In this document: positions 2,446-59,265 of the stretch, piece by piece
Position numbering within the stretch: the first letter of the stretch is position 1
Layout: every line of letters starts with the position of its first letter
DNA from: a virus
Lineage: Duplodnaviria; Heunggongvirae; Uroviricota; Caudoviricetes
DNA length: 64,000 bases
Reading direction: 5' to 3' (one strand)
Virus record (IMG/VR): IMGVR_UViG_3300028591_000002
Span: 110,718-174,717 of that record
Translations under genes and position numbers: made by a program
Notes under the pieces: model-generated
What the model was told of the DNA's origin: nothing
Seen by the model: only the letters and a program-made list of their open reading frames with translations
Databases searched by the model: none

Positions 2446-3735
2446 TTAAAATCTAAAATTAAATCTTTTAATAGGTTTAACATACGCATCTGGTTCTTCA
2501 CCTCTAAGAACTTGATCCAAACCTTTTTCGTCGATAGTAATATAACTATCCCCTTTGTGAGAATTTTTAAACCATTCTAACTCGACAGTAGAATTAATAA
2601 CTAAATTAAAAATCTCAGCTGTTTTGCCTTCTTCCACTCTAATTACACGTCCTCTTCTTTGTACAGCTTTAGTTTTAGAACTATCCAAACCTAAAATTAT
2701 AGCTACAGAAGCTCCGTGTAAATCTGCACCTTCATTTAATTTTTGGCAAGAATGTAGTGTTCCAGACTTGGCTTTATCAAAATCTTCAATTAAAACTCTA
2801 CCTTTCTTTTTTGATGTTTTACCTGTATAAACGTTTTTGCCTTTCTCTAAAGACTCTGCCATTTGGGTATTATTTGAAAAAGTAATAATTTTGGAATCCT
2901 TTCGGTTTTCCATTATCTTTTTACAAACTTCAATTTTCTTAGGATGATTATTTATAAATTTTTTTCGAGCCTGTATCACTCGCATAAAGCCCATAGAATG
3001 ATATGTTATATTCTTTAACATATCGCTCTTTTCCTCTTTGCTAGCTTTATATGAACATCTATCATCCCTCATTTTAATTCTTTCCAAATAACCCTTAGGA
3101 CCTAGCATAGACTTTGCTAAATTAAAATCATAATTAAAGAATTCGAAATGTTCTGTGAATTCTTTATTATAGTCTTTATAAGTTTGAATGTCATCAACAT
3201 CAAGTAAAACTAAATATTCCTTGAAAGGTGATATCCAGCCATTAATTGAAGCTTCCTCCGTAGTAACGGTGTCAACGACTGGACTATATTTTTTTATAAA
3301 TTCTTCTTTACCGTCCAATCTTTCGAATGTCGCAGTTAAACCTAGAATATACTTATATTTAACTTTATCAAAAACTTGGCTATAAGTTTCAGTCGGAATA
3401 CGATGTATTTCATCAATTATTAATATAGTACAAGACCAATCTCTTTTTATAACTGTATTAATAATCTGTACATCAGTATTTAAGCCTAAACCCCACTCAT
3501 CTAATAAACTTAACCATTGATTCTTTAAAGTTTCTGTAGGAACTACTACTAATATCCTAAATTTTGGATACTTCTTAAGTATGGCTTTAATTCCCATTAA
3601 ACCAATCCTAGTTTTTCCAAAACCAGTACAAGCAACAATGCTTCCAATGCATTTATTTCTAAACCATTCTTGAACACATTGTTTTTGTCTTGTAGTTCTA
3701 TCAACAGAAGTAAATAATTCTAGTTGCTGCGTCAT
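2446..3735 (-). CDS. SF2 DEAD/DEAH-box helicase
   Basis: Motif I ACTGFGKT, motif II IIDEIH, motif III LTATFER, motif VI QRRGRVIR. Confidence 0.7.
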   Translation of the reverse strand: MTQQLELFTSVDRTTRQKQCVQEWFRNKCIGSIVACTGFGKTRIGLMGIKAILKKYPKFRILVVVPTETLKNQWLSLLDEWGLGLNTDVQIINTVIKRDWSCTILIIDEIHRIPTETYSQVFDKVKYKYILGLTATFERLDGKEEFIKKYSPVVDTVTTEEASINGWISPFKEYLVLLDVDDIQTYKDYNKEFTEHFEFFNYDFNLAKSMLGPKGYLERIKMRDDRCSYKASKEEKSDMLKNITYHSMGFMRVIQARKKFINNHPKKIEVCKKIMENRKDSKIITFSNNTQMAESLEKGKNVYTGKTSKKKGRVLIEDFDKAKSGTLHSCQKLNEGADLHGASVAIILGLDSSKTKAVQRRGRVIRVEEGKTAEIFNLVINSTVELEWFKNSHKGDSYITIDEKGLDQVLRGEEPDAYVKPIKRFNFRF

Positions 3736-3740
3736 ATCCC

Positions 3741-4646
3741 CTAAGACTCGTTAATAAGGGAAAATCCTTTTAAATTAGCAACTTTCTCAAGTTGTTCAAT
3801 TCTTTCTTCCCATTGATTTATATGATAATCAATCTCATCCAAAAAACGATATAATACTTTATTTCTCAAAGTAAGAAGTTGGTCTGTAGTTAAATCAGAA
3901 TATTTCTTACTCTTAAGAGTAAGCATAGCACGTAATTCAGTATAAGTTAATCCTTTACCTTGATTAATACTAATTTTAGTACTATTTTTAAGACCTAATC
4001 TTTCTTTAATAACTTCTAATCTATTTCTATTCTTTCCTGTTTGTGGGTCCTTTTCAGTTAAATCAATTAACTCGCTATTAGTAAACCAAACCCCTAATTT
4101 AGTTATAAAATTGAGAGATAAATGTTTTCTATCAAATATTCCTAAGTCATATAAACAACCACTAAGAACATTATCAATAAGAACATCTCTGAATTCTTCA
4201 GGAGCTCCTGAATATATAGTAGAAGCTGTTAAAGTTGTTTTCCAATCTTTACCAAATAATTGCTTATTCTTATCCAAAGTACTTCTTAAATCAGAACATA
4301 CTAAATATCTAGGATAAGATTTTCTGTCATTAGAAGGTAAATATTTATTTTCACACCATCTTAAAAACAACTCAGTATTACATTTATTTATCTGGTCTTT
4401 TACAATATCTTTTAGAACATAACGTCCTGGATTCTTAGCATCTTTGCTGTATAACATAGATATACAGTGATTATAAAAATCTCTAAGTTGTTGTGGAGTA
4501 GCATCTAGCAATTTAATTTCTTGTTGGTTTCTATTATTGTCTTTAGGACCTTTCCAAATAAAATTATTAATATCGTTTTTTGCCGCTTCTTGTAACCTCT
4601 TCTTTTCCTCAAATGCTTGTGCTAGTTTTTCTCCTAAAACTCCCAT
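3741..4646 (-). CDS. hypothetical protein
   Basis: 301 aa ORF. Confidence 0.5.
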   Translation of the reverse strand: MGVLGEKLAQAFEEKKRLQEAAKNDINNFIWKGPKDNNRNQQEIKLLDATPQQLRDFYNHCISMLYSKDAKNPGRYVLKDIVKDQINKCNTELFLRWCENKYLPSNDRKSYPRYLVCSDLRSTLDKNKQLFGKDWKTTLTASTIYSGAPEEFRDVLIDNVLSGCLYDLGIFDRKHLSLNFITKLGVWFTNSELIDLTEKDPQTGKNRNRLEVIKERLGLKNSTKISINQGKGLTYTELRAMLTLKSKKYSDLTTDQLLTLRNKVLYRFLDEIDYHINQWEERIEQLEKVANLKGFSLINES

Positions 4647-4680
4647 ATTAAAAATTTTTTTTATTTAAAAAATTCATTAT

Positions 4681-4983
4681 CTAAATAGTAATATTATCTT
4701 CTTCCTCTTTTTTTCTTATAAATTTATCAAATCTAATATGAGTGAAATTATAAGTTTCTTCTTTATTAGTTATTCTATTATAATAAGTTTCTCCAGCTTT
4801 AACTAATGTAAAAGAAACAAACCCTATTTCTCCAATTTCTAATTGTCTATGTTCCCATCTCGGATATCTAGTACATAAAATATATTTATTATCCCATTTA
4901 TCAGATTCTAGATTTCTAAAGACATATAATATATATTCTCCCTCATGTTGGGCTACTTCTAATTTAGCTAATAATGTAGTCAT
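4681..4983 (-). CDS. hypothetical protein
   Basis: 100 aa ORF. Confidence 0.45.
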   Translation of the reverse strand: MTTLLAKLEVAQHEGEYILYVFRNLESDKWDNKYILCTRYPRWEHRQLEIGEIGFVSFTLVKAGETYYNRITNKEETYNFTHIRFDKFIRKKEEEDNITI

Positions 4984-8384: not shown

Positions 8385-9530
8385 TTAGACATAATTTTTC
8401 ACAAATTGTTGTGGTGTTAATTCTTGATTATAAGAATAATACCAATCTTCTATTGAAATTCCCTCTAATGATACCCATAAATCAAAATAAGATAAAGATG
8501 TTATCTTATAATCACCATTCATTAATACAGGAATCTTATCAAAATTATTAATACAATCCACATGAGTTAATATTATATTAAATTTCATGTGATATTTATA
8601 TTGATAATTTGATAAACAATGTCTATCAAAAGATGTTTTTAATAAAGAAAAATCAAATACTCCTCGTTTGAAAACACCTTGAATTCCAGTATCTAAATTA
8701 GAAGGTTCTTCTAAAGTAAAGTAATTTTCAAGTTCTGAAGAAAGCTGAGGTATATAACCATTACCATGTCTGGTAAGATATGGTCTCATTACAAAGAATA
8801 CTTCAGCATCATTCAATATTTCTGGATTTAATCCATTTAATCCAACTTTAGATGGAGTGCAGTTAGGCATAAATCCATGGTCCATATCCAAAAGTAATCC
8901 TTGAGAACCTTCATAAATGATTGTATCATAATCCTTTAAGAATAAAGGTTCTTCATAGAAAGAAGCATGTTCAACAAGCCATTTTATACTATCTATGAAC
9001 ATATCTTCAAACTCTTTTTCTGGAACGAACTTATGATACTCTCGTACTCCCTCTAAAAATTTCTCTGGGTCTTGAATTGCTTGTAGAAGTGTAGAATATT
9101 TAGATTCTTTACATCTTTTAAAAGTTTGATATATTCCCATTCCACAACTACCATTATTTAAATTATTGGAATCTTTAATATTAGAGAATACATCATAAGG
9201 TGTAATACATCTACAATTAAAAGAAATAGTAAGAGTTGGTATTATTCCTTTTGCTTCTAGAACTTCATATTCTTTTCTCATACAAATGGGGTCTACAAAA
9301 ACATTTTCATTAAGACAAGTATCAACGTCTAATAAAACTCCACTTCCATAAGAACTACAAATATGTTCAATACCATTATTTACTATTCTATGTCCTGCTT
9401 GAGGACCTCCAGAAAATCTTACTACAAGAGGTTTTTCTCCACGGTCAATGGCTTGTTTACAAAGCCACTGAACCGTAGAACCTTTTCCTTCATCCCCAAA
9501 AAAAGTTCCGAGGACTATTTGTTTTTTCAT
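8385..9530 (-). CDS. adenylosuccinate synthetase family protein (PurA / PurZ-like)
   Basis: N-terminal GTFFGDEGKGSTV P-loop typical of PurA (QWGDEGKGK), GGPQAGH, 381 aa. Confidence 0.8.
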   Translation of the reverse strand: MKKQIVLGTFFGDEGKGSTVQWLCKQAIDRGEKPLVVRFSGGPQAGHRIVNNGIEHICSSYGSGVLLDVDTCLNENVFVDPICMRKEYEVLEAKGIIPTLTISFNCRCITPYDVFSNIKDSNNLNNGSCGMGIYQTFKRCKESKYSTLLQAIQDPEKFLEGVREYHKFVPEKEFEDMFIDSIKWLVEHASFYEEPLFLKDYDTIIYEGSQGLLLDMDHGFMPNCTPSKVGLNGLNPEILNDAEVFFVMRPYLTRHGNGYIPQLSSELENYFTLEEPSNLDTGIQGVFKRGVFDFSLLKTSFDRHCLSNYQYKYHMKFNIILTHVDCINNFDKIPVLMNGDYKITSLSYFDLWVSLEGISIEDWYYSYNQELTPQQFVKNYV

Positions 9531-24216: not shown

Positions 24217-24288
24217 ACGGTTTTGTTGGAATCGAACCAACACATTCTGATTACAAGTCTGACGCTCTACCAAATGAGCTAAAAATCG
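24217..24288 (-). tRNA. tRNA-Thr(TGT)
   Basis: Cloverleaf with anticodon loop ctTGTaa; one A-A mismatch in the anticodon stem and one acceptor mismatch. Confidence 0.7.
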
Positions 24289-24695: not shown

Positions 24696-24700
24696 AATAG

Positions 24701-24772
24701 GGGGCAGTGACGGAATCGAACCATCATAAAGGGAACCACAATCCCTTGTCCTACCGTTGAACGAACTGTCCC
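24701..24772 (-). tRNA. tRNA-His(GTG)
   Basis: Anticodon arm aggga-ttGTGgt-tccct, extra G-1 paired with C73 (His hallmark). Confidence 0.8.
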
Positions 24773-29957: not shown

Positions 29958-30112
29958 TATCTACTGTAAGAGTATCTACTGTTAAAGTATCTGCCGATAG
30001 TGTATCTACTACTGATTCTACTGAATCATTTTCTTCTTGTACTGGGGAATAACCACTTCCAGTACAACTAGCCAGTGCAACAATTGCTGCAATCAAAATT
30101 AATTTTCTCATG
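29958..30112 (-). CDS. small lipoprotein with DTLTV repeats (about 51 aa)
   Basis: Own translation MRKLILIAAIVALASCTGSGYSPVQEENDSVESVVDTLSADTLTVDTLTVDTL; lipobox LASC; coding repeats agtatctactgt. Below the ORF-track size cutoff. Confidence 0.4.
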
Positions 30113-30113
30113 T

Positions 30114-30584
30114 CTAAGTTTTTAAATGTTTCATTACTTTATTATAATATGCTTGTGTTCCCTTTACAGTATATCCAGCACCACCATTCCAAATTCTAAT
30201 AGCTTTTTCAACACTATTAGACTTATTATACTTCATCATATAGATAATGAACATTTCAATAGATTTCTCTTTGTTATATCTATCTTTTAAAGTAAATCTT
30301 TTCTTATAACCCAAACTCTTTAAGTAATTGTTACAATCTACAACTAAAGCTGGTCCTATTTGCAAATAACCCACATACTTACCACTTTTACTGACTGCTT
30401 GGGTATTCAAACTCGACTCTACTCTGGCTATAGCTGTAATTACAGGGCCCCAGTAATTACTTTTGTGAACAATTTCCTTATTGAAAGGTATTTCTAAGGA
30501 ATCTGTAGTGTGTCCTTTAAGAGATAACGTACATATTACAAGTGTAATGCATAATAAAAGTTTTTTGAAATTAAATAGTCTCAT
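30114..30584 (-). CDS. lytic transglycosylase (SLT/lysozyme-like domain), secreted
   Basis: AIARVESSLN...GYLQI matches the SLT catalytic-Glu region; signal peptide. Confidence 0.7.
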   Translation of the reverse strand: MRLFNFKKLLLCITLVICTLSLKGHTTDSLEIPFNKEIVHKSNYWGPVITAIARVESSLNTQAVSKSGKYVGYLQIGPALVVDCNNYLKSLGYKKRFTLKDRYNKEKSIEMFIIYMMKYNKSNSVEKAIRIWNGGAGYTVKGTQAYYNKVMKHLKT

Positions 30585-30633
30585 ATTCTCTCAGTTTAAT
30601 ATGTTATTAATAAATTGGGAGGATGGAAGTTGT

Positions 30634-30703
30634 GCTACGTTTTGGAATCGAACCAATTATAGAGAATTTAAAATACTCTGTGTTACCATTACACCATACG
30701 TGC
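30634..30703 (-). tRNA. tRNA-Gln-derived tRNA with UUA anticodon (ochre/amber-suppressor-like), possibly degenerate
   Basis: Body nearly identical to tRNA-Gln(TTG) at 29872 (tggtgtaatggtaacac). Anticodon arm gagta-ttTTAaa-ttctc with one U-U mismatch. The acceptor stem pairs over only 4 bp. Confidence 0.45.
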
Positions 30704-31003
30704 TAATCAAAATTACGTTTCTTATTGAAGAACAAATATATTAATTTTTTCTTTCCTAAAAAAATAATTTTTGTTAAAAAAATAGAAGAGAAATATTAAA
30801 GATACCTCAGCTTTAATTTTCCCTTCTATTGTTGGTATTTTTACCCCGTAGCATGATTATGGTATGCCCTTACCACCAACGCTTCATGTTGAACATTGGA
30901 GAAAGTCAACATCTTTGTAGATTGATGTAAACTGAGGTAGTATTTAGATTATTAAGGGGAAAGGTTATACTTTACTACATTTTTTTACCTTTCCCCTATA
31001 AAA

Positions 31004-39830: not shown

Positions 39831-39859
39831 AAATTTAAATATATTAATAAATTAAGTAG

Positions 39860-39931
39860 TGTGTTCGCTGGGACTCGAACCCAGGCCTCTCGCATTAAAA
39901 GTGCGATACTCTACCACTGAGTTACGAACAC
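39860..39931 (-). tRNA. tRNA-Lys(TTT)
   Basis: Acceptor gtgttcg/cgaacac, anticodon arm tcgca-ctTTTaa-tgcga. Confidence 0.85.
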
Positions 39932-51955: not shown

Positions 51956-52300
51956 CTAAACAAATAATAGGCGAGCAGAAGTGCTACTACAAAGATTGTG
52001 ATAATCATGTTTATCATAGGATTGTTTCTTTAACTTATCACGCACTTCCTTAGGCACATACTTCTTCTTACCTTGGAAGTCATAATAGTAATAACCACCT
52101 CGACTACCTTTGTAGATAGGATATCTTCTACCATCTACTTCGATAGTAAAAGAAGTTTTAGTTTCGTTGGATTTCTCTTTACTTTTTTCAGTAGATTTCT
52201 CCACTTTGAAAGTGCTACCAATCTGCGTTACTTTTTGTGTTTGTGCACTTACACAAAGACTGGAAAGTAACATAACCAGCATAAAGATGATCTTTCTCAT
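51956..52300 (-). CDS. hypothetical secreted protein
   Basis: signal peptide, Lys-rich. Confidence 0.4.
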   Translation of the reverse strand: MRKIIFMLVMLLSSLCVSAQTQKVTQIGSTFKVEKSTEKSKEKSNETKTSFTIEVDGRRYPIYKGSRGGYYYYDFQGKKKYVPKEVRDKLKKQSYDKHDYHNLCSSTSARLLFV

Positions 52301-52369
52301 GTTGTTTTATTTTTTAAAGATAAAGAGTAATACTTTTGGCTTTCAGTTCTTTTTGAATCTCCTGAGGGT

Positions 52370-52669
52370 TTACTTTTGCCATGTTTCAATCCATTCTTTC
52401 TCCTTTGTTTGTATTTGTTCTTCTAATTCTTTCGAATGAGAATTAACCCAACTTTTTAGTTTTTCAAAATCGTTGGTCTCAAACAAAGGTTTTTCGATAG
52501 AACACATCTTTTTCATTACTGCATAAGTAGCAGTAATTACTCCATTGTTGTTCCTAAAGAATGTATATAGTACCCAATCAGAGAATACCATATTGGAGGT
52601 TCCTAACAAATAATCGCTTTTCGCTAAGTATTCTGTAGCTAAAGCATGAGAGTTTAATTCTAGTTTCAT
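52370..52669 (-). CDS. hypothetical protein
   Basis: 99 aa ORF; preceded by a conserved ~200-nt leader repeat (see findings). Confidence 0.4.
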   Translation of the reverse strand: MKLELNSHALATEYLAKSDYLLGTSNMVFSDWVLYTFFRNNNGVITATYAVMKKMCSIEKPLFETNDFEKLKSWVNSHSKELEEQIQTKEKEWIETWQK

Positions 52670-52682
52670 GATTGATGGGGTT

Positions 52683-52880
52683 TAATTGTGTTTTACGCCT
52701 AAAACTTATAACCTGTATAGGAAATCTCGACGGCCCCCAACTCACTTAATGGATGGGATATTTAAGATTTTACATAAGAAAAACTGGCGTCCTCAACATC
52801 TTGGAAATCTCCATGCAGGCAGTATCCTGCGCTTCTCTTTTTGATTAGGAGATATTTTATATTGAGTTTTTAAAATGATT
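52683..52880 (-). promoter_or_regulatory. conserved ~200-nt 5' leader, copy 1 (contains hairpin gttttacgcctaaaac immediately upstream of the start codon)
   Basis: Shares the blocks ttttac(g/a)cctaaaactta, aactggcgtcctcaac...cttggaaa and tt(g/t)tattgagttttt(t)aa with 54960-55170. Confidence 0.45.
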
Positions 52881-52899
52881 CAGTAAAAAGCTTTCCGCA

Positions 52900-53130
52900 T
52901 AAAAAACCCAAATCTCATGATATGGATCCGAAATCATCATGATTTTTTTGTTTTTGCCATTATTTATAGTCCCAGAAAAACCCAATAAGGACTAGAGAAA
53001 ATGGTTCGGTAAAAGCATTATGCATGAAACCCGAACCCCCATGAATTATTCGAAACTATCATGATTTTTTGTCTTTACTGTGTTTTATAGTCCCAGAAAG
53101 ACCAAAGAAGACTCCTGCAGAGGAGGAGAT
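52900..53130. repeat. two tandem ~110-nt direct repeats
   Basis: ...catgatttttttgtttttgccattatttatagtcccagaaaaacccaataagg... vs ...catgattttttgtctttactgtgttttatagtcccagaaagaccaaagaag... Confidence 0.5.
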
Positions 53131-54360
53131 GCTTACAATAACTCTACTATTAGAAGAGAATGACTCTTAACACCATAGTAGCAGTTAATAAGGAGGATGT
53201 TTTTCTATAGGCGGCTATGTTCTTCCTGCTATTTGATGTTATCTCACAGGCCTTTTTTTACTTTCCTATAGAATCCGTTTCGTCTTAATTTGCAAAGACT
53301 CTTCAGGGAGCATCTACACTCCGACGGAAGAAAATTTCAAAGGGAAGAACTGTTTTAAATACACAGTTCTCCCCTTTCACGCGTGCCATATTTTACTTTC
53401 TCTTGAAGCAAATATGATTATACAACAAGTACAATCTCCTCAGATGATTGTTACTTTATTCTTAGCCTTGCAATCGACTAAAAATACACTACTCTTAGTA
53501 GTGGTCTCAAGCTAGTTTCGAGACTATTGCACCTAACCCTCTTGGCAAGTTAGAATCTCGCCAGTGTTAAAGAGAATTACTGGACTTTATTATTCAAATC
53601 TTTTACTGGAGCTATCAGTAATTAATTCTAGCGTGTGTTTGTCTGGAACACGCATCCTTCCATAGATAGTTCTCTATCGACGATTCCACCAGGCATTTTT
53701 GAACATTATACAAATAGTCTTGTATTGACCAAATGCTCAATAGCCTATCCCCTCGTGGACTTGGTGGAAAATTTCAGCTGATTTAAGTCGGTCAAAACTA
53801 TAGTGCTTTTAAAAAAAATGAAAAAATTTAAAATGCACTTAGGGTTTTGTGCGAACCCATTAAAATTAAAATACCATAATATTTGGAGGATAGATTAATG
53901 CCTTCTTGCCCACTATTAGGTAGTTTAGAATTTAAAAGGGAGAACATTACTGCTCTCCCTCTTCCCCCATCACCAACCTATATTATTACAGGGTAGATTG
54001 GTTCCCTATTTAAGGTGAGAAGTTTGGTATTCTCCCCTGGACTCTAGCCAGACCAATGGTTCATTGACTTACAATTATACCATCAACTTAGCACCCCTTT
54101 ACTCAAGAGGGGAAACTAAGAGCCACTATGTGAGTGAGTATCACACGCCCATCCTTCCAACACTGGGAATCCGCGTAGCAACGTTTGCACGGAAGGACTA
54201 CAACTATTTGTAGCTGTTATATGCAAACTGATATTGTTCTCTCCGCCAGAATCGGACTGGGCTTATTTTTTTCGAAGTTCCTCACCCAAGGTTTCATTAG
54301 AACTACGGGAAGCTACACCACAACTTCCTGAGAGAGAGTTTAACTTTTAAAAGTTTCCAG

Positions 54361-54390
54361 AATAAAAAAGCTCCCTCACGGTTTGGGAGC
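54361..54390 (-). terminator. rho-independent terminator (minus strand)
   Basis: agctccc-tcacggttt-gggagct hairpin with A8 on the plus side (U-run on the minus transcript). Confidence 0.6.
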
Positions 54391-54738
54391 TGTTCCAAAC
54401 ATTTGAACACGACCTCTTACAATGTACAAAGAAGGTAGTTTGGGCACTACGATACTAATATGCTGGCACACAAAAGTATTACGGAATCATCTTACTGCCA
54501 GATAAGATGAAACATTGTCCTATATTTCAAGGGAATTTACTCCTTGTCACTAACCGTAGAACTCAGATTTTTTTATTATCCAGTTAAATAGTGTGATGCT
54601 ATAAAACTTTAAGTGTATTCACCTTATTTTACATCGAATGATACACCTCGATGTTCCAGCTCGCGAACTGGATTTTGAGAGTTTTAGATACACTCCCGTT
54701 TAACACACATACTTTTCGGCAATCCAATACGGCTTTCC

Positions 54739-54951
54739 TTATGTGTGTTCTATAACCCATTTTGAACCATCCCATTTTACTGGCTTAGCACCATCGCTGA
54801 TGCCTGCGTATGTGCAGTTTACAGAATCTGATCCGTAACGGAAACAATCTGCACAATAGCATTTGCCATTATCTGGGTCAAAACATCCGTTGCCGTCATA
54901 GACATGGATAATTTTCCCATCTTGGTTAGTCCATCCCATATAATTTGCCAT
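54739..54951 (-). CDS. small Cys-rich protein (70 aa)
   Basis: MANYMGWTNQDGK...8 Cys; preceded by the conserved leader copy 2 and followed by ~340 nt of 3' UTR and the terminator. Confidence 0.4.
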   Translation of the reverse strand: MANYMGWTNQDGKIIHVYDGNGCFDPDNGKCYCADCFRYGSDSVNCTYAGISDGAKPVKWDGSKWVIEHT

Positions 54952-54959
54952 ATTTCACC

Positions 54960-55170
54960 ATAATGCGTTTTACACCTAAAACTTATTCTTTCTCATATCT
55001 GGGTATGCATCATGCAGACAGCCCGACCCGTCAATTGGAAGGAACTTAATCCTTACAACCCAATTGCTCATAGGCGAATAAGAAACTGGCGTCCTCAACG
55101 ACTTGGAAACATACATAATTTCGGTAATCCAATACTATATATGCTTTTGTATTGAGTTTTTTAATTCTTA
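54960..55170 (-). promoter_or_regulatory. conserved ~200-nt 5' leader, copy 2 (hairpin gttttacacctaaaac)
   Basis: Same conserved blocks as 52683-52880. Confidence 0.45.
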
Positions 55171-56461
55171 TAGATAATTAAATTAAGGCTGAGTGTTGAC
55201 CTTTAATGCTGTCTTTTCTATCTTTTTCAAGAATATCACACACCTAGGATTAGTAGGTAGACAACATACGGACTAGTTTTTGATAACTAGCTATCACTAC
55301 TCTCATATTATGTAGATTACTAGCTCGCTCATGGTGCTTGCGGCCAAACAGGATGCCTCCTGAACCCAGATGAGTCTACTTTCACCTTTACATTTTCCTT
55401 GCGGTACTCATGTAATCCACGTATTTCAGTGGAACAACCGTATTTTCATACGAGAGTGTACAACACTTTTGCTAACTAATGTTTTTTACAAATTAAATGC
55501 ACCAAATGCACTTTTTGTTTGCGTATAACTTTAATTAGAGCTTTGCCTGGAAGATGTGGTTGTACTTGTCACCATACTGGCTTTTGACCAGCTACAGGTG
55601 CGACACCTCCCTGTTTTCTTCTGCCACGAATACTCACTTTTAATAGTTTTATTTATCCTACCATTTCTGACTCAAGTAACCAGCTGAAGCCTCTTATTGG
55701 TTAAGAGATAGGACATTACTATTAAATTATATACTCTATTGGACTGGCAATCCTTTGGAGTATATTTATACCATATATTGTCGATGTTACCATCCAAGGT
55801 AGGTTAGCAAGACCCACCGTATACCTCTTCAACTCTGCCCGAGTATCCCAAGATATACTCATATGATATAGCTTTCAGGTGGACATTTGTTTACACAAAT
55901 GCGCATACTCTTTCTAAAGGAGCACACTTTATAGCATTACTGCTTTATCCTAAAGACACGAAGCCTGCCTCTCCATCATCCTTCACATTAATTCCGTAGA
56001 ATTGTGTGCCGACTACTTTGGACTTGTCGGGTGTAGATTTAAGAGGTTGTTCCCCCAAAAATTGAGGGAACTTATCGATTCTAGATTGTAGAAGGTATGG
56101 CAATCCACGCCATATCTCCATACTTAAGAGTTTTTCTCACAACAAATGTTGGAGGTTTTTCTTCTGATTTTAGCAATTTGTTTAGGACGTTTCGGTGTAT
56201 CCACAATAAACGTCCATTTTGTTGGAAACAAATGCTATTCCTCGACATTCTAATGATGTTCAAAGGAAAGTGGATTTCGATTATTTCCATTTTGCAAAAT
56301 GTATATTTTCGGTGTTTTGAAATATTTTTTTAGGAAAAAAAGTGGAAATTTCTGGGGGAGGATAACAGTACCAACAACCGACACTGTCCACTCAGAAATT
56401 TCCAAGAGGAATTTTCAGAAGAGAAATGATATTCTAATCAAAATCTCTCCTGAAAATAGTT

Positions 56462-59000: not shown

Positions 59001-59265
59001 AGAAACAGCACAAGCCTTAAATGCTATTCATATTTTGGATAGAAATTTTACAGACTTATTAAATCAATGTAACGAAGTGCGAGAAGAAATTCAAGCACTT
59101 CGTTTAGAAAATGAAAAATTAAAACAAGAAATTAAATCCTTAAAATTGCCCTATGGTGTAACGGCTAGCACAGGTGGCTCTAACCCATCTGGTCTGGGTT
59201 CGAATCCTAGTGGGGCGACCAATACAGAAAAAGATGATAAAATTTTTAATGAAAGTACTGGTTAA
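58993..59265 (+). CDS. hypothetical coiled-coil protein (the 3' part is probably not coding)
   Basis: The N-terminal 50 aa look coiled-coil. The remaining frame runs through the suppressor tRNA (the GSNPSG-type translation is typical of tRNA sequence), so the true end is uncertain. Confidence 0.25.
   Translation: MFKETAQALNAIHILDRNFTDLLNQCNEVREEIQALRLENEKLKQEIKSLKLPYGVTASTGGSNPSGLGSNPSGATNTEKDDKIFNESTG
59147..59221 (+). tRNA. tRNA-Sup(CTA): amber suppressor, Gln-derived, with genomically encoded CCA
   Basis: tgcccta-tg-gtgt-aacggcta-gcac-a-ggtgg-ctCTAac-ccatc-tggt-ctggg-ttcgaat-cctag-tggggcg-a-cca. D-arm like tRNA-Gln at 29872; anticodon CTA at 59180-59182. Confidence 0.8.

Follow-up and report, generated by a model that had tools for sequence, protein, structure and literature searches.

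A tRNA with a UUA anticodon in a TAG-recoded phage is very probably an identity-shifted member of a tRNA-His family with a bulged acceptor helix

INTRODUCTION

Why would a phage that ends most of its genes on TAA carry a tRNA whose anticodon is complementary to TAA, and from what did such a tRNA arise? These questions are raised by a tRNA gene on the minus strand of a 64,000-nucleotide (nt) stretch of DNA from a rumen phage of the Caudoviricetes (Duplodnaviria; Heunggongvirae; Uroviricota), namely, positions 110,718 to 174,717 of the IMG/VR record IMGVR_UViG_3300028591_000002. This whole stretch is called the window below, and all coordinates are positions in it. An earlier note, made from the letters of the window, had described the gene as a Gln-like tRNA with a degraded acceptor stem and had suggested, among other possibilities, a decayed copy of the suppressor lineage. 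Comparison with orthologous loci pointed to another origin: the tRNA very probably stems from a family of tRNA-His genes whose acceptor helix is slipped and bulged, and its identity has since shifted. As to function, we tentatively favor a weak reader of UAA and UAG.

RESULTS AND DISCUSSION

A tRNA gene with the anticodon UUA

The gene extends from G1 to the discriminator base A73 (30633..30703, minus strand) and was found by ARAGORN, which called tRNA-Stop(tta) at 30632..30704 on the minus strand, and by the Rfam tRNA model RF00005 at 30636..30701; the cloverleaf was also obtained as the minimum free energy (MFE) structure and with RNAalifold. The Rfam score of 35.3 bits lies above the gathering score of 29 (E = 3.9e-6 locally and 1.1e-3 for the whole window) and ranks 28th among the 30 Rfam tRNA matches in the window. 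This is a real tRNA gene, scoring above the model threshold. ARAGORN and the covariance model picked the same register, with the anticodon U34 U35 A36, complementary to the stop codon TAA, at 30669..30671 (minus strand). The earlier note was thus right about the UUA anticodon and about the loop, which it had written as ttTTAaa.

The anticodon arm (30662..30678, minus strand) consists of the stem GAGUA/UUCUC, in which four of the five positions pair and U30.U40 is a mismatch, and the 7-nt loop UUUUAAA, which keeps U33 and a purine at position 37 (A37). An extra A26:U44 pair is possible, and the isolated arm folds with only about -1.8 kcal/mol. A shifted register (AGAGU/AUUCU, loop AUUUUAA, anticodon UUU), which the earlier note had named as a less likely Lys-type fold, was considered as the main fold and rejected: at -0.6 kcal/mol it is less stable than the UUA register (about -1.8 kcal/mol), it leaves no room for nucleotide 26, the covariance model passes it over, and the orthologs described below use a different register. 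The D-arm (GUGU/AAUGGUA/ACAC; 30680..30694, minus strand) is nearly the same as in those orthologs and also resembles that of the phage's tRNA-Gln and of its suppressor tRNA Sup(CUA). The T-arm (AUUGG/UUCGAUU/CCAAA; 30641..30657, minus strand) is the same as in the orthologs except at position 49, where the change creates an A.A mismatch at 49:65 that is also present in the phage's bona fide tRNA-Gln. According to the ARAGORN cloverleaf and the ortholog alignment, the tRNA core is retained (U8, A14, G18, G19, T54, Psi55, C56, A58, and G53:C61).

The same slot holds tRNA-His(GUG) in four sister lineages

A gene for an SLT lytic transglycosylase (Pfam PF01464; 30114..30584, minus strand) lies 48 nt downstream of the UUA tRNA and served as the synteny anchor. 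Relatives of the locus were found only via exact-protein look-ups of the flanking SLT and SPFH homologs. The assemblies obtained in this way include the likely source of the window, contig k141_307136 (178 kb) of ENA ERZ27256846. SLT homologs with 77-80% identity (P0002, P0003, P0004, and P0133) are encoded on contigs L008, L009, L010, and L024, and all four of these sister lineages carry a tRNA-His(GTG) 45-50 nt upstream of the SLT gene. The four slot tRNAs lie inside contiguous blastn alignments with 75-85% identity to the window, and these loci agree base for base with the UUA locus in the T-arm (except position 49), the 3' acceptor strand ACGTAGC, and the 3' trailer core. The shared slot, the contiguous flanks, and the identical T-arm and 3' acceptor strand thus establish the His tRNAs as orthologs of the UUA tRNA, to which they are identical at 52-56 of 73 positions; the identity of the UUA tRNA to the phage's tRNA-Lys(UUU) is 56%.

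A G-1:C73 pair is a hallmark of bacterial tRNA-His, and all four orthologs carry G-1 and C73 together with the anticodon GUG. The column pair -1:73 is GC in these four sequences and AA in two; in the window, position -1 (30704..30704, minus strand) is an A, where the His orthologs have a G paired with C73. The same phage encodes a canonical tRNA-His(GUG) with G-1:C73 and a normal acceptor at 24700..24771 (minus strand), so the His function of the slot tRNA would be redundant.

These orthologs bear directly on the earlier proposal that the tRNA is a Gln-type paralog of tRNA-Gln(UUG) or Sup(CUA) with G36 changed to A, either a decayed suppressor copy or an ochre/amber suppressor that inserts glutamine. 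The near-identity to tRNA-Gln(UUG) on which it was based held for the D-arm block (positions 7-27, 20/21 identical) but not for the anticodon stem and the T stem, each of which matches at only 2/5 positions per strand. The T loop is alike, but T loops are near-universal. At 67% overall, tRNA-Gln is still the closest tRNA in the window, positions 7, 9, and 73 are as in tRNA-Gln, and UUG is a single step from UUA. GlnRS readily charges U35 suppressors. No outgroup carries the slot tRNA, so a UUG ancestor is conceivable. Against a Gln-type origin, all of the sampled orthologs are tRNA-His(GUG) by synteny and contiguous flanks, and they share the D-arm in question. The T-arm (apart from position 49) and the 3' acceptor strand follow the His orthologs, unlike tRNA-Gln, and the acceptor begins with G1:C72 and C2:G71, as opposed to a weak 1:72 pair and G2:C71 in the phage's tRNA-Gln and Sup(CUA). 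The His orthologs themselves are equally similar to canonical tRNA-His and to tRNA-Gln (67% each).

The flanks of the tRNA are conserved in part. A motif search of the upstream flanks recovered TATATTTG about 36 nt upstream of the tRNA (30733..30740, minus strand) in all five lineages; it fits TAnnTTTG, which we take to be the Bacteroidota -7 promoter consensus, and on that assumption it is a candidate promoter. The gene is probably transcribed, and its transcription, like the processing, charging, and decoding discussed below, is predicted from sequence patterns. Directly 3' of the tRNA, the trailer that leads to the SLT start codon contains an 18-nt C-rich block, CTTCCATCCTCCCAATTT (30612..30629, minus strand), whose core CATCCTCCCAATTT does not differ among the lineages with UUA, UUU, or His tRNAs while adjoining intergenic bases vary. 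The C-rich block resembles an anti-Shine-Dalgarno sequence. Between the SPFH gene and the promoter motif lies a hairpin followed by a T-run (about 30790-30822, minus strand), which is also present in the orthologous loci and shows compensatory stem changes between lineages (TTAAAG...CTTTAA versus TTAGAG...CTCTAA); this hairpin probably terminates transcription of the preceding gene.

At more distant SLT loci (L011-14, L022, L023, L049, and L050), the slot carries no tRNA. Scans with the SLT and SPFH proteins, run on IMG/VR and the JGI metagenomes, yielded only distant loci (L007, L049, and L050), in which the slot lacks a tRNA of this family. A megablast of 12 kb around the locus against the INPHARED phages gave no match. 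Pattern scans with the D-arm plus UUA anticodon (IMG/VR) and with the T-arm plus 3'-acceptor motif (IMG/VR and JGI metagenomes) returned nothing.

The slipped, bulged acceptor helix is a family trait

In the ARAGORN and covariance-model alignments, the acceptor shows only four contiguous pairs (A3:U69, C4:G68, G5:C67, and U6:A66), the number given by the earlier note. With A70 bulged, however, G1:C72 and C2:G71 join these four to give six pairs, and this is the arrangement found both in the single-sequence MFE structure and in the RNAalifold consensus of six orthologs, at which RNAalifold arrived independently. The 5' acceptor strand G1 C2 A3 C4 G5 U6 occupies 30698..30703 and the 3' strand A66 C67 G68 U69 A70 G71 C72 occupies 30634..30640 (both minus strand), with the bulged A70 at 30636; A7 (30697) is unpaired and leaves a 3-nt linker to the D stem. 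All six distinct orthologs have the same 3' strand, ACGUAGC. In the canonical register, only two of seven acceptor pairs (G1:C72 and C2:G71) form in the UUA tRNA. Over the family, 90.5% of the cells are paired in the slipped register versus 41.7% in the canonical one, whose four lower acceptor pairs form in none of the six distinct sequences.

The same architecture is seen in the tRNA-His orthologs, whose helix reads G-1:C73, G1:C72, C2:G71, U3:A70, a bulged U69, C4:G68, G5:C67, and U6:A66. For the ortholog on L024, the cloverleaf with the slipped acceptor is the MFE structure (-19.8 kcal/mol) and makes up 40% of the ensemble. The change of U3 to A3 in the window moved the partner from A70 to U69, so that the position stays paired and A70 is now the bulged base. 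The His orthologs show compensatory changes at 27:43 and 51:63, and their acceptor strands are invariant while the flanks differ by 15-25%; by these patterns, they are evolving as constrained tRNAs. Since the bulged acceptor is present in the whole ortholog family, including tRNAs that fold cleanly, it was inherited and is not the product of recent decay, and the term "degraded" does not fit it.

Like bacterial-type tRNA-His, the orthologs have G-1, C73, and GUG, and the lengths of their acceptor strands match (8 + 8 nt). Unlike the 8-bp acceptor of the bacterial type, the helix of the phage family never forms the lower four canonical pairs and adopts the slipped, bulged register instead; the window copy, with A-1, A73, and UUA, also lacks the three His features. 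The His orthologs score only 33-38 bits with the Rfam tRNA model, in local matches that leave out the acceptor. A phage tRNA-His family with a conserved slipped acceptor and such poor scores in standard tRNA models calls for caution in the annotation of tRNAs in viromes.

Identity positions and the anticodon arm changed in the window lineage

The UUA tRNA differs from the His orthologs at 17-21 of 73 positions. These differences are concentrated in the anticodon arm, with 10-12 of its 17 positions changed versus 7-9 of the 56 positions elsewhere (Fisher p = 5e-5 to 1e-3), whereas the His orthologs differ among themselves at 2-10 positions, 0-2 of which are in the anticodon arm. The His identity set G-1, C73, GUG, and G37 is replaced by A-1, A73, UUA, and A37, the loop having changed from G37-C38 to A37-A38. 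Apart from the changes at -1 and 73, those outside the anticodon arm include position 3 (the shift of the bulge) and the unpaired position 7. Within the anticodon stem, both sides of pairs 28:42 (GC to AU) and 29:41 (AU to GC) changed with pairing kept, the latter in opposition to the GC-to-AT mutation bias, and pair 30:40 went from GC to U.U. No insertions or deletions occurred, and all tertiary-contact bases were kept.

The possibility that the anticodon arm had been swapped in from another tRNA was examined and rejected; the 19-mer arm has 20 exact matches in GTDB and 4 in IMG/VR, none of them in a tRNA, and by a rough estimate ~17 matches are expected by chance in GTDB. In an SLT tree, the UUA clade was sister to the His clade, with 61% bootstrap for His monophyly. 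About 15 changes are specific to the UUA branch compared to 0-4 on each comparably deep His lineage, which favors the direction from His to UUA, although a deeper, Gln-type ancestor of the slot tRNA with UUG may have existed. As far as its origin is concerned, these comparisons make it very likely that the UUA tRNA is an identity-shifted ortholog of the His-slot tRNA and belongs to the bulged-acceptor family.

UUA and UUU alleles occur among strains

The UUA tRNA is base-for-base identical in seven independent assemblies (L002 and L015-L020), in which the 3-5 kb compared are 96.2-100% identical to the window. Strain-level conservation was considered as a sign of selection and was rejected because the background of variable sites is too low (~2 per 100 nt). 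One further strain (L001) has a T instead of an A at anticodon position 36 (30669 in the window), which yields the anticodon UUU (Lys) in the same register. This natural allele echoes the Lys alternative of the earlier note, here in the UUA register. Over 2,612 aligned bases, L001 and the window differ at this base only, and the chance that the only single-nucleotide polymorphism (SNP) in 2.6 kb falls on the anticodon is about 0.1%. UUA was found in all diverged strains and UUU only in this near-identical one; thus, UUU appears to be derived within the species.

A second contig from the same sample as L001 (JGI 3300024345) ends inside the tRNA (L003:4340-4399) and has about 7 extra mismatches in its last 60 nt. 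These mismatches, which fall in the D-arm, may be contig-end noise, as which they were treated, or may come from a break in the assembly graph, to which strain variation or the D-arm repeat in common with tRNA-Gln could have led.

TAG is recoded and TAA remains a stop codon

The window has 32% GC, nearly all of its genes are on the minus strand, and it encodes about 29 tRNA genes and a transfer-messenger RNA (tmRNA). On the minus strand, TAG is the one stop codon that breaks up long frames at 33.6-37.2 kb and 59.4-64 kb, 2 to 15 times per gene, and these frames end on TAA or TGA; TAG is recoded in this phage. When genes were called with TAG as a sense codon, 61 of 88 ended on TAA and 27 on TGA, and four of the seven TAG-containing genes ended on TAA. 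A search of the 64-kb window for genes that need TAA readthrough found none, and long in-frame extensions past a TAA were the next gene with its own ATG. These counts agree with the earlier view that TAA is a genuine stop that is not broadly suppressed. The gain in open reading frame (ORF) coverage with TAA as a sense codon, from 42% to 71%, was dismissed as an artifact of the AT-rich sequence. Because TAA ends most genes and no gene needs its readthrough, the UUA tRNA does not define the genetic code, and annotators should not read "tRNA-Sup(TTA)" calls in recoded phages as TAA recoding.

The tRNA that matches TAG is the Gln-like Sup(CUA) at 59147-59221 (plus strand). It is the sole plus-strand tRNA, encodes its own CCA end, and adjoins the TAG-rich block at 59.4-64 kb. 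In alignments with M15 peptidase homologs, Gln was enriched at TAG in three of four columns and Lys in two of four, at variable positions and with a risk of circularity from database translations made with code 15. Among sense codons, AAA is the commonest (72 per 1000), and His codons are rare (16 per 1000).

Some genes outside the TAG-rich blocks (the SLT gene at 30108-30584 and those at 3732-4646 and 4648-4983) end on TAG, with a TGA or TAA coming 2-11 codons later. Public SLT gene calls are 156 or 158 amino acids (aa) long because of this TAG end and back-up stop. The TAG at these gene ends may be a leaky terminator with a back-up stop. The phage tmRNA (24317-24601, minus strand; Rfam 72.5 bits; tag AEIDYFNMAA) lies inside the tRNA array and is relevant to readthrough by suppressor tRNAs.

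A weak reader of UAA and UAG is tentatively favored over a relic

The pattern of substitutions is consistent with an alloacceptor anticodon shift ("remolding"). The slot tRNA would have inherited the body of the His family, together with the candidate promoter motif upstream, the SLT gene 48 nt downstream, and the slipped, bulged acceptor, and would then have undergone the changes G-1 to A, C73 to A, GUG to UUA, and G37-C38 to A37-A38. The anticodon stem would have been rebuilt with pairing largely preserved, while the D-arm, the T-arm, the tertiary-contact bases, and the geometry of the loop were left intact. The tRNA would pair directly with UAA, and a U:G wobble would let it pair with UAG as well. 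Lysine would be the likeliest amino acid to be charged, because of A73, U35, and the natural single-base relation between UUA and UUU, with glutamine as the alternative. With TAA as the main terminator, any suppression would have to be weak and nonessential, amounting to low-level readthrough or to back-up reading of the recoded UAG and not to a third recoded codon. The tRNA would still be shaped by selection, because new bases took over the identity positions and the loop, the stem regained most of its pairing, the core did not change, the promoter motif is conserved, and the lone SNP hit the anticodon. For the whole of this statement, an identity-shifted tRNA that is at most a weak reader of UAA and UAG, decoding included, we would give somewhat less than an even chance.

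Several observations weigh against it. The UUA tRNA is the least stable of 28 tRNAs in the window (-11.3 kcal/mol; z = -0.35 versus shuffles), compared to -19.8 kcal/mol for a His ortholog; two high-scoring AT-rich tRNAs in the window are almost as weak in folding energy. Except for the two compensatory pairs, all structural changes specific to the lineage weaken the fold (-1:73 lost, U.U at 30:40, and A.A at 49:65), and 11 of the 17 changes relative to L024 are from GC to AT, the direction that relaxed constraint would favor in a genome with 32% GC. The direction of change is not fixed, as the outgroups lack the slot tRNA and His monophyly reaches only 61% bootstrap. Most genes end on TAA, none of the ORFs depends on its readthrough, and a survey of ~10,700 jumbo phages reported no TAA recoding (PMC13037316). 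The conservation among strains is not significant (0/73 variable sites against the local background of ~2 per 100 nt), the anticodon polymorphism can equally be read as a lack of constraint, and the UUU allele is known from one 2.65-kb contig.

The strongest rival, which we regard as nearly as likely as the favored reading, is that the gene is a nondecoding relic or a tRNA-like processing element left by a redundant tRNA-His paralog. The top half formed by acceptor and T-arm, and the elbow formed by the D- and T-arms, would then be kept for RNase P, RNase Z, and the CCA-adding enzyme, which would cut a polycistronic transcript upstream of SLT; the anticodon arm, which the processing enzymes do not need, would drift toward A/T, with UUA and UUU as accidental states. 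The conserved parts are indeed those that processing enzymes use, and most of the change sits in the anticodon arm, with a strong GC-to-AT bias. The loss of three pairs and the much weaker fold, the polymorphic anticodon, and the use of TAA as the main stop, with no gene needing suppression, agree with a relic as well, as do the interspersion of tRNAs with small ORFs on one strand across the region and the apparently unused suppressor tRNAs described in zeta crAss-like phages (PMC12386605). However, free drift would be unlikely to keep a 7-nt loop, U33, A37, four of five stem pairs, and an alignment free of indels after 10-12 substitutions, and the gain of a compensatory GC pair in place of AU runs against the mutation bias. 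Within the conserved top half, positions -1 and 73 did change, and it is precisely these two that determine His identity. The relic also leaves to chance that the anticodon holds the one SNP in 2.6 kb.

A stronger version of the favored reading, in which the tRNA is a natural, population-stable ochre/amber suppressor, remolded from the bulged-acceptor tRNA-His, that promotes readthrough of UAA and UAG genome-wide, is unlikely. If it were true, the tRNA may sabotage termination on host or competitor mRNAs, with the phage tmRNA clearing up, or may alternatively be a first step to a code with TGA as the only stop; the change from UUA to UUU could then switch it off and provide an extra decoder for AAA, the commonest codon.

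Still less probable is a Lys decoder, which would read AAA and AAG through the shifted register in the window allele or directly in the UUU allele, either supplying the most-used codon or replacing a host tRNA-Lys cut by an anticodon nuclease. The tRNA-Lys of phage T5 acts against PARIS, and phage tRNA-Lys variants rescue infection from tRNA-cleaving defenses (PMC11464382, PMC11555353), which lends the proposal a documented precedent. The UUU allele, the high use of AAA, and the agreement of A73 and the A37-A38 loop with the phage's bona fide tRNA-Lys loop CUUUUAA also speak for it. However, UUA is present in 7/8 assemblies, including the more diverged strains, and thus is the established state in the species; the shifted register has the shortcomings given above; and a canonical tRNA-Lys(UUU), noted earlier and confirmed here at 39859-39931 (73.4 bits, the best-scoring tRNA in the window), already exists. 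The Gln-type paralog is likewise very improbable in view of the His orthologs in all four sister lineages.

Relation to known suppressor and remolded tRNAs

Classical ochre suppressors that arose by one change include E. coli supG/supL (lysT; tRNA-Lys UUU to UUA) and a phage T4 tRNA-Gln (UUG to UUA), and weak ochre suppression is known to be tolerated alongside TAA terminators. As in supG/supL, the natural UUU and UUA alleles are one base apart at position 36 and share A73 and U35. The classical suppressors, in contrast, are laboratory-selected mutants of true Lys or Gln tRNAs, whereas the UUA tRNA is the prevailing natural allele, and its body derives from the His slot and not from a tRNA-Lys.

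Sup-CUA suppressor tRNAs have been described in TAG-recoded Lak, crAss-like, and "gemstone" phages (Borges et al., bioRxiv 10.1101/2021.08.26.457843; PMC9523058). The window resembles these cases in having a phage-encoded anticodon that matches a stop codon and a low-GC, tRNA-rich, TAG-recoded genome with a Gln-like Sup(CUA) and in-frame TAG in a subset of genes. It differs in that the matching stop, TAA, is not recoded and never in frame, and in that the tRNA comes from a His slot with a bulged acceptor and is not a Gln-like suppressor. The unused suppressors of zeta crAss-like phages are similar in that a suppressor-type tRNA is kept in several diverged strains without matching in-frame stops; they are, however, Sup-CUA or Sup-UCA tRNAs for rare terminators (PMC12386605), whereas here the match is to the main terminator, so strong activity would be costly.

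Alloacceptor remolding and anticodon shifts have been found by synteny in metazoan mitochondria (PMC4783518) and eukaryotic nuclear genomes (PMC3923123, PMC2997554). The present case came to light by the same reasoning from flanks and synteny, and the pattern is alike: an orthologous position, a body closest to another acceptor family, and a changed anticodon with changed identity positions. The present case differs in its bacteriophage setting, in an end state that reads a stop instead of a sense codon, and in its many anticodon-arm changes compared to the usual one or two. We found no phage case of an alloacceptor shift in the open-access literature. Suppressor tRNAs in recoded phages, one-step ochre suppressors, and remolding detected by synteny are thus already known (PMC4783518, PMC3923123); what appears to be new is that they are combined in a phage, that the anticodon has come to match a stop codon which the phage has not recoded, and that the parent tRNA-His family has a bulged acceptor as a conserved trait.

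Activity of the tRNA would mean that a virus with mostly TAA-ended genes keeps a natural reader of UAA, which bears on how stop-codon reassignment starts and on whether suppressors act as phage weapons or as code-defining decoders. Active or not, it offers a clean, synteny-anchored change of acceptor identity in a phage, in which positions -1, 73, 34, 36, 37, and 38 moved together with compensatory stem pairs.

Other features of the window

Further unusual tRNA genes were observed in the window. A 168-nt tRNA match at 43805-43972 (minus strand; Rfam 40.2 bits), called by ARAGORN with introns allowed as Phe(aaa) with an 87-nt anticodon-loop intron, is probably a tRNA with an intron, its identity uncertain; a weak tmRNA-like match lies nearby at 43507-43649. 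The tRNA at 46431-46507 (minus strand; 49.5 bits), situated between two other Met(cat) genes, has an oversized anticodon loop; ARAGORN called it "???" with an anticodon of four bases (ttca) or, when introns were allowed, Met(cat) carrying an insert of 3 nt. Two very AT-rich but high-scoring tRNAs on the minus strand, Asn(att) at 45965-46037 (unusual A34, 36% GC, 63.8 bits) and a second Thr(tgt) at 24217-24288 (40% GC, 61 bits), each duplicate a GC-richer tRNA of the window, Asn(gtt) and the other Thr(tgt), respectively, and may be further fast-evolving or shifted tRNA copies.

At 52300-56400 (minus strand), a 3.8-kb block contains no ORF of at least 100 aa on either strand, even with TAG as a sense codon, and has an elevated GC content of 0.34-0.43. 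The giant RNA GOLLD (RF02032) gave a full-length match at 55186-55611 (95.3 bits, E = 1.2e-24, below the gathering score of 150), and by this similarity the block is probably a divergent GOLLD-like large noncoding RNA. A match resembling a type III hammerhead ribozyme (RF00008; 53272-53330, minus strand) sits inside the block and covers the full model length, with 39.4 bits versus a gathering score of 48.5 (E = 5e-6). Finally, a gene resembling adenylosuccinate synthetase (8385-9530, minus strand) has as its best PHROG phrog_1211 (E = 2e-47), a PurZ-type phage enzyme, a similarity that gives a hint of a genome with 2-aminoadenine (Z) or of some related nucleotide pathway.

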